Virus record (IMG/VR): IMGVR_UViG_3300045988_144737
DNA from: a virus
Length of the DNA: 64,000 bases
Strand: one strand, 5' to 3'
Shown one piece after another: positions 2,896 to 64,000 of this stretch; the stretch's first letter is position 1; each line of letters opens with the position of its first letter. A model generated the notes under the pieces. The model was not told the DNA's origin, did no database searches, and saw only the letters and a list, made by a program, of their open reading frames with translations. The position numbers and the translations under genes were made by a program.

Positions 2896-3192
2896 CTATT
2901 TTATAATATTTAATAATTTGTTTGTAATGTTATCTTTGTAACTTATTCTCTCTAGTTTAATGTTGTGTTTGCATAATAATTTTTCTTTAAGTTTATCCCT
3001 ATATTGACTATTTAAAAATTTTTGCTTATTTTTATGAAAATGTTTACTATATCTAAAATGTTGATTTCCATCAAACTCAATTACCAAATTTAAAGACTCG
3101 ATATAAATATCTACAAACATATGTTTGTTTGTTTTGTCGTTGACCCACCAATCCCATGTTTTTTCTAATTGATACTTTATATTTTTTTTCAT
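2896..3192 (-). CDS. Homing endonuclease nuclease domain (DUF559/Vsr-like PD-(D/E)XK), in a different frame from the upstream DNA-binding part
   Basis: ..FVDIYIESLNLVIEFDGNQHF.. is the same D-x-Y..IE-x-DG-x-QH core as the endonucleases at 60465 and 62002. It begins inside an A8 run (T8 at 3182-3189 on plus). Confidence 0.55.
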   Translation of the reverse strand: MKKNIKYQLEKTWDWWVNDKTNKHMFVDIYIESLNLVIEFDGNQHFRYSKHFHKNKQKFLNSQYRDKLKEKLLCKHNIKLERISYKDNITNKLLNIIK

Positions 3193-3940
3193 CCAACATT
3201 TTAGTAATAATAATCATGCCACTACTCATATTTCCATAAGAACGATAATTGTTTCCAAACAATTCAAATAATTCTTCTTTATTAAAATAAGTTGAAATAG
3301 CTTGATATGTAAATTCACATTCTAAATCAATAACATATTTAGATATGAATCCATATAAATTATAGCATCTCTTTAATTCCTTTAAAATATGCTCTTTCCC
3401 ATAAACTTTATTTTGTGGTTCATATCCCAATTGTTCAATCATATCATTCCAACCATCAAAATACTTTCTTATAGTGGCACTACTATAAGAACCATGTTGT
3501 TTATATATTCCATAATCAACCTTATTAAAATAGTTAATTACTTTCAACACGTCTTCAATCAATTCATCTTTAGACACATTCTTAGGGGTATTGATTTTCA
3601 AATTATAACTTTTTAACAAGTTGTTATAACCTCCAAAAATTCTTCTTACCGTGCTACTATGAACGCCATATTTTATCAAAGTATCTTTTTTTATTGGAAT
3701 ATTATCAACTATCATTTTCGAGACAACATTGTCAATAAACTCTTTATCAATTTCATTATATTTTTTTAATTTAATTCCTAATTCTTCGCAAACTTTCTTA
3801 AATCCTCCGTATTTGTTAAAATGCCATTGAGCATTTATATCTAAACCGCTATCTTTACTAAAGTCTTTTAAATATACATTACCCTTTTCTTTATAAATTT
3901 CTAATAATTTTTCACATAACAATTCTTTTGTTATTTTCAC
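3077..3940 (-). CDS. Homing endonuclease DNA-binding part (four homing-endonuclease-associated-repeat-like units)
   Basis: Repeated units HFNKYGGFKKVCEELGI, STVRRIFGGYNNLLKSYNL, ATIRKYFDGWNDMIEQLGY, AISTYFNKEELFELFG. GTG start after AAGGTGA. Frame ends 115 nt after the A8 run. Confidence 0.55.
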   Translation of the reverse strand: MKITKELLCEKLLEIYKEKGNVYLKDFSKDSGLDINAQWHFNKYGGFKKVCEELGIKLKKYNEIDKEFIDNVVSKMIVDNIPIKKDTLIKYGVHSSTVRRIFGGYNNLLKSYNLKINTPKNVSKDELIEDVLKVINYFNKVDYGIYKQHGSYSSATIRKYFDGWNDMIEQLGYEPQNKVYGKEHILKELKRCYNLYGFISKYVIDLECEFTYQAISTYFNKEELFELFGNNYRSYGNMSSGMIIITKMLDEKKYKVSIRKNMGLVGQRQNKQTYVCRYLYRVFKFGN

Positions 3941-12184: not shown

Positions 12185-12330
12185 GTTTAATTCCCTATTC
12201 AACGTATCCTATTTTGCTACAAAGCTACTCTAGTTTGATATAATACTCCAAGGGCGTAAATTCCCATACAACGCATGGTACACATTAGTATTATCTTTTA
12301 AGTGACTATTCTACTAATCCATATCTACTT
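12185..12330 (-). ncRNA. Candidate omegaRNA/right-end region of TnpB element 1
   Basis: Directly 3' of tnpB on the minus strand. Hairpin CCATgcgttgtATGG, motif TTACGCCCTTGGAG (12248-12259 region) shared with the 3' region of TnpB-2 (TTACGCCTGTGGAG), terminal ..AATTAAACAAGC resembles ..GGTTCAAGC of element 2. Ends are approximate. Confidence 0.4.
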
Positions 12331-58419: not shown

Positions 58420-59712
58420 GTGGCTCAAGAAAAATATATTGCTAGTATTAAAGTAGCATTGGATAAGGCTAGTATTGAAGATGTTACCAAAAGACTTGAT
58501 ACAATAACTTCTCAAAAACGAGAAATGTCGTTGGCAATCAATAAGGGCGATATGGATGCCTTCTACAATTCGGTTGCAAAGGTTGAAACGGAGACAAAGA
58601 AATTACAATCGTCATTGAATATTACTGCCAAAGACACTAAGACTTTAATTAGTAGTTATAATCAAGCTAATAATTCTAGCAATAGATTAAATCAAACACT
58701 AGATAAACAAATACAAAAATTAAATAAAATTAGAGCATTACATCAAAGCGCATTTGAAGATGAAGGTATTGGCGGTCAATTCGATAAGGTGAATGAGGCT
58801 ATTAGCAAAGCCCAAGCCGATACTACAGCGGAAAATGTTTCAAATGTAAAAAAGCAAATAAGTTTATTGAGTGATGAAGTTTCTATTTATAATAATAGAG
58901 AAAAGTCGTTAGGGGAACAATTAAGGTATAGTGCCGAAAGATTTACTAAGTATGTAATTGGTGCACAAGCATTGTTTATGACTATTTCTGTCGTTAACAA
59001 AATGATTGATAATGTCAAGGAGTTAGATAGTGCATTAGTCGAAATACAAAAGGTTACAAATCTTAGCGGACAAGCATTGCAAGATTATACCGACAAAGCA
59101 TTTCAAGTAGGCGAAACGGTTGGTAGAACTGGTACTGAAGTATTAAAGGCTGCTGGAGATTTTGCTCGAAGTGGATATGCTTTAAATGAAACCTTGACAT
59201 TGGCTCAAGAAGCTGCTACAATGTTAAATGTAGCCGATGAAATGAGTGATATTTCAACTGCGTCATCAACTTTAATTTCAGTAATGAAAGCATATAATTT
59301 ACAAGCTAGTCAAGCTGGTGAAATTACTGATACGTTGAATGAGGTAAGTAATAATGCTGCGATATCTTTTGATGATTTGGCAGAAGGAATTTCCAGATCT
59401 GGTGCAGTATACGCTCAAGCTGGAACTTCTATGGGCGAATTAACGGGATTGCTTACAGGTGCAAACGAAGTATTACAAAATATTGAGAAAACTTCTACTG
59501 GTTTGGTAACAATATCTCAACGTATTAGAGGTATTGAAGAAGCAGGAGATGAGGCTACACCAGGGGTTGCCAAATTAGGCAAGGACTTGGAAGAAATAGC
59601 TGGAATTAATTTAATGGATAGCGAGGGTCAACTAAGAGATACTTATGATATTCTCAAAGACTTGGCAGAAGTCTATCCTACGTTGACTACAAATCAACGT
59701 CAATATTTGGGT
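58420..59712 (+). CDS. Tail tape-measure protein, exon 1
   Basis: GTG after AAAGGAGGGTG. Coiled-coil N-terminus then a PhageMin_Tail-like core (..ALVEIQKVTNLSGQ..GRTGTEVLKAAGDFARSGY..). Ends ..TTNQRQYLG. The ORF-track tail WLLCLAQ.. is intron read-through. Confidence 0.8.
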
Positions 59713-60087
59713 TGGCTACTATGTTTAGCCCAATTAAAACAATTTGAATTGTTGGGAAGTCCTAAAGTCTATTAAACTACAACGTGGCTTGAAAAGGCGA
59801 GCGTGAATGTGAACGAAAGTTAGAAAAAATTAATAGAATGGCATATGGTGAAATATGAATGTGGTGACATAGCCCTAAGTGCTTTATAATGGATAATCAA
59901 CAGCCAAGACTCGTATAGAGTAAGGTTTAACGACTATCTCGTAAGAGAGTAGGGTCACAAGCGATTGGTGACTCGAAGCGGATTGGCTCTCAATGAGAGT
60001 ATGATATAGTCTGTTCTCATGCGAAAGTATGAGTATTTGATATAATTCAAATAGGCTTAGTCTAGCGAACTAAGTTTCACAAAAAAG
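59713..60087 (+). mobile_element. Group I intron A in the tape-measure gene (ORF-less, 375 nt)
   Basis: P1 TTGGGT (59707-12) / GCCCAA (59728-33) with U.G. Q AATCAACAGCC, R GGTTTAACGACTATC, S ATGATATAGTCTG, P9 CTCATgcgaaagtATGAG. Ends in G 60087. Confidence 0.7.
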
Positions 60088-60102
60088 GAGCAGATAGCTG
60101 GT
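60088..60102 (+). CDS. Tail tape-measure protein, 15-nt micro-exon (EQIAG)
   Basis: GAGCAGATAGCTGGT. Preceded by G, ends in U that pairs in the P1 of intron B. Keeps the frame. Confidence 0.6.
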
Positions 60103-61419
60103 TAATCTTTAGCCAGAGTGTATAGAGATATACACCAAGTACAGACCTAATTGCTGGGAACTCTCGAAGTATTTATAAACTAAACATACTTAGAAATAAG
60201 CATGTATAAGTGATATATATAAATATATGTGACAATCAGCAGCGAAGCCCCTAAGTCGTTTAGATATGGGGTGTGTTCAACGACTATCGAAATTAATAAT
60301 AAATATAACTCTACAATGTAGAGAATAAGGCACGTAAAAGTGGATGAATAAAGTAGAGTACGCCTTTATGGTGGAAATGGTCTGCCCCTATTATATAGGG
60401 TGAAGATATAGTCTAGTCTTGCATGAGAGTGTAAGGATTTTTTATTGTTGAATTGAATAATGATATGAAGAAAAAATTAGATGAAAAAATAGAAGATGCT
60501 AAAAAGTTTATAAAAGAAAATTATAATAATAAGTACGAATTTGTAGATGCTTATTATAAAAACACTAAGAGCAAAAGAAGGAAAAATGGGCGCAATGAGT
60601 TTTTTATTAAATTAAAATGTAACACATGCAGCGAAGTGTTTGAAAGAAAATATTGCGCTTTTAAAGCTAATGATAGATGTTTTTATTGTGTTACATATAC
60701 TCAAAATTCATTTTTGCATAATCAAATCAGCTTAATGGCAAAACGATATTGTGATAATGTTGAAACAGAAAAAGACATAGGCTTTAAAGGCTTGAAAGGA
60801 AAGCCTAGTAAATATGATTTATATATTCCAAATCATTATGAATTTGGAAATGTTTTAATAGAATTTCAAAGTAGATTCCATGATAACAAAAGGGATTTTG
60901 ACATGAAGAAAAAGCAATACGCTTTAGAAAGTGGATTTAATTTCATGGAGTTTGATGAGCGAGATTACAATATTGATGATGTTAGTTTAATATTATTTGG
61001 TAAGGTTGTTGATGAAGATATTAAAAATAATTTCTTAAAAAGACCAATCGATTTTGATGAAGTTCAAAAACTTTTAGATAAAAATATGACGTATAAAGCG
61101 ATTGGAGAAAAATTAAAAATATCACCAAATATTATTCAAAACCATGTCAACCGAGGTAGGTTGTATTTAAGAAAAGATAGAATGAATTATACTCATAACA
61201 AAACACCATTGATAAGAATTGACGCCCAAGGGAATATAACCGAGGTCGACAGCGCTTGGGGGTATTTTAAATCAACAGGTGACAAAATACCCAGACCAAA
61301 ACAAGGAAGTATGATTTTTAGTCACGGTTATTTTTGGGTAAGAAAAAATGACTATATTAATAACAATTACAAAGAACACAGGAGATTTAAAAAAATTCAA
61401 CAATAAATAAATTAAAACG
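60103..61419 (+). mobile_element. Group I intron B in the tape-measure gene, with homing-endonuclease gene
   Basis: P1 CTGGT (60098-102) / GCCAG (60112-16). P2 GTGTATA/TATACAC. P AATTGCTGGGAAC, Q AATCAGCAGCG, R GTGTTCAACGACTATC, S GAAGATATAGTCTAG. Ends in G 61419. Confidence 0.7.
60465..61406 (+). CDS. Homing endonuclease: zinc ribbon plus DUF559/Vsr-like PD-(D/E)XK core plus C-terminal HTH
   Basis: CNTCS..CFYC; KYDLYIPNHYEFGNVLIEFQSRFH; MTYKAIGEKLKISPNIIQNHVNRG. ATG 60465 is preferred over the TTG at 60453. Confidence 0.6.
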   Translation: MKKKLDEKIEDAKKFIKENYNNKYEFVDAYYKNTKSKRRKNGRNEFFIKLKCNTCSEVFERKYCAFKANDRCFYCVTYTQNSFLHNQISLMAKRYCDNVETEKDIGFKGLKGKPSKYDLYIPNHYEFGNVLIEFQSRFHDNKRDFDMKKKQYALESGFNFMEFDERDYNIDDVSLILFGKVVDEDIKNNFLKRPIDFDEVQKLLDKNMTYKAIGEKLKISPNIIQNHVNRGRLYLRKDRMNYTHNKTPLIRIDAQGNITEVDSAWGYFKSTGDKIPRPKQGSMIFSHGYFWVRKNDYINNNYKEHRRFKKIQQ

Positions 61420-61531
61420 AAGAGACAAGTTGCAGTTTTAGAAAGTTTATTAACAAATTGGCAATCTGTAGACAAAGCAGTACAAGCAGCTGCAAATAGT
61501 ACAGGTAGTGCAACTGAGGAACAAGAGAGGT
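61420..61531 (+). CDS. Tail tape-measure protein, exon 3
   Basis: KRQVAVLESLLTNWQSVDKAVQAAANSTGSATEEQER plus 1 nt. Not in ORF track (no start codon). Confidence 0.7.
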
Positions 61532-62939
61532 TAGAATAAAATAGCCTATGTGTATAGTAATATGCACTAAGAATATATTTAATTGCAGGTAATCCCTAAA
61601 GTCTTGCACCACAATAATGGCGAAAGCACATTATGAAGGTACGAAAGTAGAAACAACGCAAGAATGGCATATGGTCAAAAGCCTAAGTGTCTATACAATG
61701 GGTGTTCATGCAACCAAGTTCCCTAACGTTATACACAAATCATGTGTTAGTTAAGTCGAGGGAAAAGGTTCAACGACCAGATTCATGTCGAGATTAAAGC
61801 AAGAGAATAAGGGTGGAAATCCCGAATACTTTAATCAATAATCGTAGGGCGCAATCGCTATTGGCGTGGGTGAGAACCCCTTAAATCGAAAAGGTATACC
61901 CCTATATAATATTAGGGTGAAGAAATGGTCTGCGCATATGCGAAAGTATATGAATTAAATATCGAGTTATTATAAAAGGGGATGGTATTATTAAAAGAAA
62001 ATTGTGGGATATAAATAGTGTAAGAGAGTTTTTAAAGGAGAGAGGATATAATTTAATTTCTGAAGAATACAAAAATAACAAAGAAAAGATATTTTTTGAA
62101 AAAGATGGTTATAAGTATTCGAGTACCATAAATTGTATCACGAGACAAAAAGATGTTCAATCTAAGTTTTCGGCACGCAACCCATATATGTTGGAAAATA
62201 TTAAAAAATATATGCGTGACAACAATTGGAAAATTAAATTATTAACTAAAATAAATCCTCATAAAAATGATGATAAGTTGGAGTTTCAATGCGTTTGTGG
62301 TGCTAAATTTAGTGCCACGTTTAAAAATTTGAGAAAAAATGTAGACCCATTGTGTCCTGCTTGTTCAATAAGAAGACGTAGCAATATGCTTAAAACCACA
62401 AAGGAAGAGGCTAATAGGTTTTTAAAAGAAAATGGTTATAAAATAAAAATTATAGGAAACTATACAAAAGGTAATGCGCCTACGACCTTTTTGTGTGATT
62501 GTGGTAATGTTTTTACTACTACATTTCATGATGTTAAGTGGAGCAAGCGAATTCAATGTCCTGAATGTAATAACGTTATGTCAAAAATAGAAAGATTAAC
62601 TGAAAATTATTTAAGGGATTTGGGAATGTTGTTTGAGATGCAAAAAACTTTTGATGGATGTAAGATGAAAAGGTTGTTGCGCTTTGATTTTTATTTACCC
62701 AAATTAAATACTTGTATAGAGGTGCAAGGAGAGCAACATTATAAGAAAAAGTTTTATGTCAAAGATTGGGAATTAACTCAACGTAGAGATGAGACAAAGA
62801 GGGATTTTTGCTTAAAAAATGGTATCAAGTTAATAGAAGTTCCTTGGTATCTCTATAAAGACAATCAATATAAGACTTACATATTAGAACAACTCGATAT
62901 TTAATTAGTTAAAATTAGCGATTTTAATTAACATTACGG
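61532..62939 (+). mobile_element. Group I intron C in the tape-measure gene, with homing-endonuclease gene
   Basis: P1 AGGT (61528-31) / GCCT (61544-47). P2 GTGTATA/TATGCAC. R GGTTCAACGACCAGA and S GAAGAAATGGTCTGC carry compensatory P7 changes (GACCA/TGGTC versus GACTA/TAGTC in the other introns). Ends in G 62939. Confidence 0.7.
62002..62904 (+). CDS. Homing endonuclease: two (helical module plus zinc ribbon) repeats plus DUF559/Vsr-like PD-(D/E)XK core
   Basis: VREFLKERGYNLIS..CVCG..CPAC and ANRFLKENGYKIKI..CDCG..CPEC. ERLTENYLRDLG..RFDFYLPKLNTCIEVQGEQH. TTG start. Confidence 0.6.
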   Translation: MWDINSVREFLKERGYNLISEEYKNNKEKIFFEKDGYKYSSTINCITRQKDVQSKFSARNPYMLENIKKYMRDNNWKIKLLTKINPHKNDDKLEFQCVCGAKFSATFKNLRKNVDPLCPACSIRRRSNMLKTTKEEANRFLKENGYKIKIIGNYTKGNAPTTFLCDCGNVFTTTFHDVKWSKRIQCPECNNVMSKIERLTENYLRDLGMLFEMQKTFDGCKMKRLLRFDFYLPKLNTCIEVQGEQHYKKKFYVKDWELTQRRDETKRDFCLKNGIKLIEVPWYLYKDNQYKTYILEQLDI

Positions 62940-64000
62940 ATTTAAATTCTATTGAGGGTAAAACCCAACAAATGTTGTCGGCATTTGAACAATTATCTAC
63001 TAATACATTAGATAGTAATTGGCTTAAAATGTTAATAGATGCCTCAACCGCAGTTATTGAATTAACTGATAATGTAGGGTTATTAAATGTAGCTTTTGGA
63101 GCATTTGTTGCTTATGCTACTTTTAAAAATGAGGGTAAGCCAACTAAATTGTGGGAAACATTAAAAAACAATATTATAGAAATAAGGGATAACGTTAAGA
63201 GCACAACGGTTTCTTTAAGCAAACAAGATGAAGGCGTTAAGGAAATCTTGTTGTCACAAAAGAATTTAAAGACCTTAGAAGAACAAAGGGCTTATCTTAA
63301 AAAAACCGAAACAAAATATAACGAGGCTACATTGGGTCTTATTCACCAACAAGTTGCAGCTGAGAGAACAAAAAATCAAGTGGTAGCAGTTGGTAAATCA
63401 TTAGCAATGGGGCTAGTTGGTGTTTTGGCAGGTATGGCACTAAGTGCTGTTATTTCTTCAGCAGCCGAGGCATTTCATGAATGGACTCATCCAATTGAAA
63501 CAGCCAAAGAAAACTTAGATGAAATATCTAATGAGTTAGAAAGTGCCAATAGTGAACTTGAGGGGTTAAAAAATTCTACAAAAGACTTAACTCCACAAGA
63601 AGAAACTAGGTTACAAGTATTACAAGCACAAACTGAGCAATTAAAACAACAACAAGAATTGCAGGCACAAGAAACTGGTAAAATGCAATTCAAAGACACC
63701 AGTGGTGGTCAAGTTGAAAGAGTTCAAAAATATGATGGTACATTTACTTATAAATATAAAGTAGATACAAGCGAAGTAGATGCGTTTAACGCTAAATTGG
63801 AAGATGGAACTAATTATACGGTTCATGCCGATATGAGCGAGATTGAAGATGCTAAACAAACTATGATTGATGCAGCCAACGCTATTAGTGAAGCTGGTGT
63901 TGATGCTACTGATGAACAAAAAGAAGCATACAATCAATCGGTTGAAAATTACAATGAGATAGCTACTCAATATGCTGATATATTCGCTCAAATGACCGCA
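62940..64000 (+). CDS. Tail tape-measure protein, exon 4 (open at window end)
   Basis: (Y)LNSIEGKTQQMLSAFEQLSTNTLDSNWLKMLIDAS.., TM-like GLVGVLAGMALSAVISS, then coiled coil. Frame open to nt 64000. Not in ORF track. Confidence 0.75.

Follow-up and report, generated by a model that had tools for sequence, protein, structure and literature searches.

A probable 15-nt exon between two independent group I introns in the tape-measure gene of a phage related to Thomasclavelia phages

Very short exons between group I introns have been described in phages and bacteria. The tail tube gene orf142 of phage Twort carries three group I introns, has an internal exon of 23 nt and shows exon skipping (PMC10136302 and PMC11878797, citing Landthaler & Shub 1999). 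A 34-nt exon lies between group I introns of the Coxiella 23S rRNA gene (PMC10136302), and a 'small exon' is reported for the ribonucleotide reductase (RNR) gene of phiNIT1 (PMC11878797). Here we analyzed a 64,000-nt stretch of viral DNA, IMG/VR record IMGVR_UViG_3300045988_144737 (the window), in which the gene for the tape-measure protein (TMP) appears to be interrupted by three group I introns, named A, B and C. We read the 15 nt between A and B as a genuine TMP exon between two independent introns, and we put the probability of this reading at about 0.88.

In contrast to Twort, the short exon is 15 nt rather than 23 nt, its flanking introns are ~55% identical while Twort I2 and I3 are near-duplicates, and all four combinations of intron presence occur in natural alleles. 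The two loci are alike in being phage tail genes with several introns of the self-splicing IA type and a very short exon between two ribozymes, and on our reading of the Twort record (L010) they have the core motifs AACGACUAU ... GAUAUAGUCUG in common. Splicing and skipping were shown experimentally for Twort, whereas here they are read from sequence alone. In fungal mitochondria, exons of 3-18 bp occur between introns, mostly of group I, in cob and cox; mitochondrial exons of 12-15 bp are described for Armillaria (PMC6506933), an exon of 3 bp has been reported (Xavier 2012, cited in PMC8208691), and Ophiostoma cob-201 has an 18-nt 'pseudoexon' (PMC12308204). These resemble the present case in having a tiny coding exon between independently inserted, endonuclease-carrying group I introns of a conserved gene. 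However, they are organellar and protein cofactors often aid their splicing, whereas the present gene belongs to a bacteriophage of a Firmicutes host, for which the shortest cited exon is 23 nt. The statement in a preliminary description of the window that five-codon exons between self-splicing introns are rare is thus right for phages and bacteria (23 nt in Twort and 34 nt in Coxiella being the shortest cited; PMC10136302) but not for fungal organelles, where exons of 3-15 bp are documented (PMC8208691, PMC6506933).

Other phage introns with homing endonucleases are known from the phage K lysin and polymerase genes, SPbeta bnrdE/F, the SPO1 DNA polymerase gene and the polymerase, terminase and RNR genes of Bastillevirinae (PMC3984707, PMC11878797). 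The introns of the window are like them in ribozyme class, in an endonuclease open reading frame (ORF) in a peripheral loop, in presence/absence polymorphism among close relatives and in synonymous changes around the sites. They differ in the host gene, which here is the tape-measure gene; PMC11878797 stresses DNA-metabolism genes for the introns found there. Introns in tail genes are reported for Cluster J mycobacteriophages (PMC3706429). The arrangement is therefore an extreme example of a known phenomenon, the short exon between group I introns. To our knowledge, and as far as the literature examined can show, no shorter exon of this kind has been reported from a phage.

The layout of the gene, from the ORF list for exon 1 and from alleles and the homologue alignment for exon 3 and alleles for exon 4, is as follows.

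58420..59712, + strand: TMP exon 1, 431 codons, 3' end ...QRQYLG, final base U59712
59713..60087, + strand: group I intron A, 375 nt, without an ORF
60088..60102, + strand: predicted micro-exon GAGCAGATAGCTGGT, 15 nt, encoding EQIAG
60103..61419, + strand: group I intron B, 1317 nt, with a 317-aa endonuclease-like ORF
61420..61531, + strand: TMP exon 3, 112 nt, KRQVAVLESLLTNW...EEQER plus the first base of a Tyr codon
61532..62939, + strand: group I intron C, with a 300-aa homing-endonuclease ORF at 62002-62904
62940..64000, + strand: TMP exon 4, continuing past the window end, with the spliced translation open to there

A profile search found the PF10145/TIGR01760 tape-measure domain in exon 1. 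The first TMP ORF in the list runs on to 59775 (58420-59775), and the coding sequence then ceases to match homologues. Joining 58420-59712, 60088-60102, 61420-61531 and 62940-64000 gave an open frame reading ...TTNQRQYLG-EQIAG-KRQVAVLESLLTNW... across the first junctions. The flanks of GAGCAGATAGCTGGT are G60087 on the 5' side and TAATC on the 3' side. The preliminary description had placed these 15 nt at 60088-60102 directly after G60087, in frame, stop-free and translated as EQIAG, and had observed that 59712 joined directly to 61420 keeps the frame as well (YLG-KRQ); our check of the sequence agreed on all of these points. Its proposal of a micro-exon was borne out by intron-plus and intron-minus alleles, gap-free homologues, TMP profile scores and Rfam matches. 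The micro-exon goes beyond a chance fit because the P1 helix of the Rfam group I model aligns to exactly these bases and because relatives carry the 15 nt fused to an exon.

We compared the natural alleles of the window, of TR-TP1 (PQ571309, record L001) and of the IMG/VR contigs L011 (IMGVR_UViG_3300045988_134720), L012 and L013. The closest published relatives of the window are the Thomasclavelia phages TR-TP1 and TR-TP2, with 95.5% identity. The alleles are given below, with a slash at each boundary.

A+B+, window: TTTGGGT / A / GAGCAGATAGCTGGT / B / AAGAGACAAG (longer reading of the exon 3 side: AAGAGACAAGTT)
A-B+, L012: TTTGGGTGAGCAGATTGCTGGT / B / AAAAGACAGG (longer reading of the exon 3 side: AAAAGACAGGTT)
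A+B-, L011, intron A without an ORF: ...AAAAAAG / GAACAGATAGCTGGGAAGAGACAGG (longer reading: ...CACAAAAAAG / GAACAGATAGCTGGGAAGAGACAGGTT)
A+B-, TR-TP1, intron A with a 1197-nt endonuclease ORF: ...AAAAAAG / GAGCAGATAGCTGGAAAACGTCAGG (longer reading: ...CACAAAAAAG / GAGCAGATAGCTGGAAAACGTCAGGTT)
A-B-, L013, 83% amino acid identity: TTTGGGCGAGCTCATCGCTGGGAAAAGACAGG (longer reading: TTTGGGCGAGCTCATCGCTGGGAAAAGACAGGTT)

The equivalent of the 15 nt was joined to exon 3 in TR-TP1 and L011, to exon 1 in L012 and to both in L013. Intron A was found at the same site in TR-TP1 and L011 and was missing in L012 and L013; intron B was found at the same site in L012 and was missing in TR-TP1, L011 and L013; intron C was missing in all four. 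Each of the three introns thus showed presence/absence polymorphism at a fixed site. Since all four presence/absence states of A and B exist, this comparison marks the two as independent mobile units. The same alleles bear on a twintron or single composite intron, in which the 15 nt would never enter the mRNA and which the preliminary description had raised only as its alternative. The two cores do stand back to back, and tandem 'twintron' modules are spliced as a unit in fungal mitochondria (PMC12308204). However, TR-TP1 and L011 have A alone and L012 has B alone, each at the same site as in the window, the equivalent of the 15 nt is ordinary coding sequence in TR-TP1, L011, L012 and the intron-free L013, and the 15 nt are not a copy of the downstream exon. 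We rejected the composite intron, which we find scarcely credible. A pseudo-exon, in which the 15 nt would duplicate the downstream exon as in Ophiostoma cob-201, was rejected as well, there being no such duplication.

The intron-minus alleles make the boundaries of intron A (59713-60087) unambiguous, and in the A-less L012 base 59712 adjoins 60088. From sequence alone the boundaries of intron B can slide by one base, and only the placement with T before the intron and G as its last base meets the rules of a U.G pair at the 5' splice site and a terminal omega-G. A shift of intron B by one base (GCTGG / T...C / G, recreating the GGG codon of L011) was rejected, as the intron would then end in C instead of G and the U.G pair would be lost. 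The third base of the Gly codon was T only in the alleles that carry B (window and L012), as expected if use of the 5' splice site requires the U.G pair. Synonymous differences were concentrated around the B site (GGA AAA CGT CAG versus GGT AAG AGA CAA), which fits the trace that co-conversion during homing would leave. Positions 59389-60101 were 99.4% identical to L011, which has only A, and positions 60088-61529 were 96.5% identical to L012, which has only B; because of these matches we infer that one intron homed into a genome already holding the other. Intron B was found at this site in one further IMG/VR contig only.

A tblastn search of phage genomes gave 143 phage records with related TMPs, while a word-indexed protein search gave only three matches. 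We aligned the spliced product with 10 intron-less TMPs (eight phage and two metagenomic proteins, 27-40% identity). All 10 were gap-free from ...TL... to ...NW..., across QRQYLG-EQIAG-KRQ, so that the pentapeptide, for which the preliminary description had suggested a look at TMP homologues, has five residues opposite it in each. These residues included SLIGG, EVMGG, EMIGG, VEVAG, VTLAG, EAISG, VQLAG and FAAAG, and the column of the last micro-exon codon was Gly in 10/10. The IAG(K/R)xQ motif that had been given as typical of this region is borne out by IGGKTQ, MGGKHQ, IGGKRN, VAGRYQ, LAGRYQ, ISGKNH and AAGTRQ. With the 15 nt, the product matched PF10145 over profile positions 2-201 of 201 with 101 bits and the match ended at the micro-exon Gly; without them the match covered positions 2-194 with 98.7 bits. 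For TIGR01760 the scores were 112.5 bits with and 105.4 bits without the 15 nt (curated cut-off 28.8). The tape-measure family match thus exceeded the cut-off and was unbroken across the splice junctions. A 140-aa protein that is 98% identical to TMP exon 4 is filed at NCBI as 'hypothetical protein, partial [Enterobacter asburiae]'; it probably comes from a contaminant or mis-binned contig, because the phage group infects Thomasclavelia.

We searched short slices of the window with the Rfam covariance model RF00028 (Intron_gpI, gathering score 50). Intron A matched at 59703-60033 (48.3 bits, E 2e-11) and intron B at 60094-60435 (65.5 bits, E 1.3e-16, over the gathering score), both over model positions 1-253, and intron C matched the full model positions 1-253 at 61522-61952 with 32.9 bits (E 1e-6). 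No Intron_gpI was returned when the whole 64 kb was scanned at the gathering threshold or when a 3.8-kb slice was scanned at E <= 10. This is an effect of the speed filters and not absence, since intron B passed the gathering score once a 376-nt slice was searched. Speed filters hid these AT-rich, insertion-laden phage introns in long inputs, and all three TMP introns were missed. The only whole-window Rfam match at the gathering threshold was a RAGATH-18 RNA motif at 12191-12254 on the - strand (70.8 bits, gathering 44.9, E 3.6e-12). The helices of introns A and B are as follows.

59707-12/59728-33, + strand: P1 of intron A (UUGGGU/GCCCAA), with U59712.G59728 at the splice site
59740-45/59980-85, 59749-55/59897-903 and 59759-62/59891-94, + strand: P3, P4 and P5 of intron A
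59932-37/60006-11, 59952-58/59968-74 and 59987-91/59995-99, + strand: P7, P7.2 and P8 of intron A
60016-22/60027-33, 60056-61/60069-74 and 60087, + strand: P9, 3' hairpin and omega-G of intron A
60098-102/60112-16 and 60118-24/60129-35, + strand: P1 (CUGGU/GCCAG, with U60102.G60112) and P2 of intron B
60142-47/60379-84, 60151-57/60236-42 and 60247-51/60268-72, + strand: P3, P4 and P6 of intron B
60282-87/60408-13, 60386-91/60395-400, 60419-23/60430-34 and 61419, + strand: P7, P8, P9 and omega-G of intron B

Every listed helix was fully complementary, and both introns have the conserved core helices P3-P4-P6-P7-P8 including the P3/P7 pseudoknot. As the preliminary description had it, P1 of intron B has five pairs (C60098-G60116, T99-A115, G100-C114, G101-C113 and T102.G112) and a 9-nt loop, and RF00028 places P1 on exactly these bases. 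The P2 hairpin at 60118-60135 was likewise found with 7/7 pairs (GTGTATA/TATACAC) and a GAGA loop, and the P4 element AATTGCTGGGAAC is present at 60149-60161, slightly beyond the span given there. P4 covaries between the introns (UUGUUGG/UCAACAG in A versus UUGCUGG/UCAGCAG in B), and the change from G to A at 60242 between the window and L012 keeps the P4 pair with T60151 (U.G to U-A). P7 (GACUAU/AUAGUC) is bordered by conserved J6/7 and J8/7 motifs, and the J6/7-P7 motif GTTYAACGACYA has exactly three copies in the 64 kb, one per intron. The omega-G bases G60087 and G61419 stand directly before the exon sequence as set by the intron-less alleles. The cores of A and B are ~55% identical and differ in the sequences of P3 and P8, and so are not duplicates of each other. 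Both are classed as IA type because of P7.1/P7.2-type insertions. By blastn, both cores were similar to unannotated regions in many Staphylococcus, Enterococcus and Lactococcus phages. One match lies in the annotated ORF30/ORF32 of phage K, which we take to be the intron-containing lysin region.

In GenBank, the TMP of TR-TP1 (L001 3001-9517) and TR-TP2 (PQ571310) is annotated as separate 'tail length tape measure protein' coding sequences (CDSs), two in the case of TR-TP1, interleaved with 'HNH endonuclease', and no introns are annotated. This annotation, together with the whole-window Rfam scans without an intron match, would suit a dead gene or TMP pieces that are translated separately, with free-standing endonuclease insertions as the interruptions. 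However, short slices gave full-length group I matches for A, B and C, neither the 15-nt piece nor the 112-nt exon 3 can be a gene by itself, the intron-less homologues are single continuous ORFs, and intron A of the window has no ORF at all. We consider a broken gene of this kind very improbable. The TMP gene is needed for tail building in tailed phages. TR-TP1, an isolated and propagating phage (PMC12694917), carries intron A in this gene, which argues that A is spliced out in vivo.

To account for a 15-nt exon at this place, we propose that two different mobile IA group I introns invaded the TMP gene of a Thomasclavelia-phage-like genome, at insertion sites 15 bp apart. For intron A, the end of exon 1 (UUGGGU) would pair with GCCCAA to form P1, and UGUUU may align the start of the micro-exon (GAGCA) as P10. 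For intron B, the end of the micro-exon (CUGGU) would pair with GCCAG to form P1, and the 3' end would be the omega-G at 61419. Each intron would be a complete ribozyme with its own guide and would remove itself separately. The two splicing events would join exon 1, the 15 nt and exon 3 into ...QRQYLG-EQIAG-KRQVAVLESLL..., the conserved end of the PhageMin_Tail domain. Comparison of alleles and homologues supports the exon and intron boundaries, the independence of the introns and the conservation of the encoded residues, and model match and complementarity support the ribozyme cores; self-splicing of both introns and retention of the 15 nt in most of the mRNA would follow.

The putative P10 strand of intron A lies here:

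59722..59726, + strand: UGUUU, pairing with micro-exon positions 60088-60092 (GAGCA)

This candidate has 5/5 pairs, two of them G.U, and one unpaired base (A59727) separates it on the 5' side from the P1 guide strand. It still pairs in L011, where the exon has GAACA; this is no compensatory change that would serve as proof, and P10 of intron A through UGUUU/GAGCA is our inference. Such a helix is frequent in group I introns without being universal. The P10 proposed earlier for intron B, TCTT (60106-09) with AAGA (61420-23), is complementary at 4/4 positions, but its register is not kept in L012, where exon 3 starts with AAAAGA. The micro-exon would thus be divided into a P10 strand of A in its first 5 nt, a linker GAUAG, and a P1 strand of B in its last 5 nt. 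Splicing would presumably be sequential and not simultaneous, because 10 of the 15 nt must dock in two different cores with only a 5-nt linker.

Several points weigh against this explanation. The A+B+ allele was seen nowhere else in IMG/VR, JGI metagenomes and GTDB genomes, where the string of the A 3' end, the micro-exon and the B 5' start had 0 further matches, and the viability of this double-intron genome is thus without independent support. Intron A scores slightly under the gathering score (48.3 against 50 bits), although its match is highly significant, and has no P2, the P10 candidate of intron B is only 4 bp long and shifted in register in L012, and splicing and retention are deduced here from DNA. 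The skipped join is in frame, and documented examples of skipping are the 23-nt exon of Twort orf142 and engineered tandem Tetrahymena introns (PMC10136302). In phage SIOphi the skipped product is dominant (PMC11878797, where the gene is the terminase gene in the Results and the polymerase gene in the Discussion). Skipping might therefore be the main or a substantial outcome, with 59713-61419 removed as a unit by a composite ribozyme or by step-wise use of the distal 5' site, and a TMP without EQIAG as the product. On our reading of the sequence, AAGAG of exon 3 could form 4/5 pairs with UGUUU of intron A, and a 15-nt exon leaves very little space for two folded ribozymes. However, skipping would cost the protein an invariant Gly and the last seven PF10145 profile positions. 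The differences between A and B in P3, P8 and the guides speak against a hybrid ribozyme: with ~55% identity and P3 of CAATTT/GGATTG in A versus CAGACC/GGTCTG in B, such a ribozyme cannot form P3. The guides are GCCCAA and GCCAG, and in engineered tandem introns a difference of this kind is reported to promote inclusion of the exon (PMC10136302). We consider skipping unlikely as the main or a substantial outcome and possible as a minor or regulated product, and retain the reading of the 15 nt as an exon.

More speculatively, and with little confidence, the use of 10 of the 15 nt as guide partners of two ribozymes might impose an obligatory splicing order or allow regulated skipping, with two TMP isoforms with and without EQIAG. 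The exon would be the shortest known between self-splicing introns in a phage or bacterium, and each insertion would destroy the target of the other endonuclease, giving competition or mutual protection.

The ORF of intron B lies downstream of P9 and is taken from the ORF list:

60453..61406, + strand: intron B ORF, 317 aa from TTG, with the first in-frame ATG at 60465

Its match to phrog_4538 was weak (E 3e-7), and it probably encodes a homing endonuclease. Two further ORFs, those of intron C and of intron A of TR-TP1, matched this family too. The latter two ORFs matched homing-endonuclease PHROGs with E 1e-41 to 1e-51, the intron C ORF matching phrog_559 (E 9e-51), 9084 and 7140, which are annotated as HNH or homing endonucleases. 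In Pfam, the ORFs of intron B and of TR-TP1 intron A had no match and the intron C ORF had only sub-threshold zinc-ribbon matches. About 50 nt of intron C (61844-61894) are ~96% identical to the SPbeta/phi3T bnrdF region. Intron A of TR-TP1 has a 398-aa endonuclease ORF after P9 (L001 4621-5817; compare 60037-60055 of the window). In the intron A of the window and of L011 this ORF is absent except for its last ~25 nt, which fold into a conserved hairpin of 6 bp (60056-61/60069-74) shortly before the 3' splice site. Either the tail of the TR-TP1 ORF also serves as part of the ribozyme structure or a clean loss of the ORF took place; intron A of the window may have lost an ORF or never had one.

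Further insertions were seen in related TMP genes. L011 has at 3087-3612 a copy of the intron C ribozyme (98% identity over 61535-61953) at another TMP site, equivalent to 59387/59388 of the window. Its guide is ACCCT instead of the AGCCT of the window and matches the new upstream exon GAGGG(T), so that the copy looks re-targeted by a single change of guide sequence. The junction of this copy can be placed in two ways that differ by 1 nt, one of which gives a G-C and not a U.G pair at the 5' splice site. In TR-TP1 a second endonuclease ORF (L001 8270-9517, with a NUMOD4 domain) splits the TMP gene downstream, which suggests a further TMP intron there. In the TMP region of Clostridioides phage phiCD211 (NC_029048, L008 31-296) an Intron_gpI is annotated immediately 5' of the segment homologous to this TMP. 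Introns thus seem to enter the TMP genes of large Firmicutes siphophages repeatedly.

The TMP is mis-annotated in TR-TP1 and TR-TP2, the closest published relatives, and any gene caller would lose a five-codon exon and return a wrong or truncated TMP. Detection of the introns has a pitfall of its own, as Rfam scans of long windows miss them although one is above the curated threshold in a short slice. Work on how tandem group I introns avoid or use skipping has been confined to Twort and engineered constructs; the exon described here is shorter than any tested so far for such skipping, and the four natural alleles are ready controls. With three introns in the window, one more in L011 and possibly a further one downstream in TR-TP1, the TMP gene is an intron hot spot in this phage group, and it adds to the group I introns in phage structural genes, beyond those in genes of DNA metabolism.

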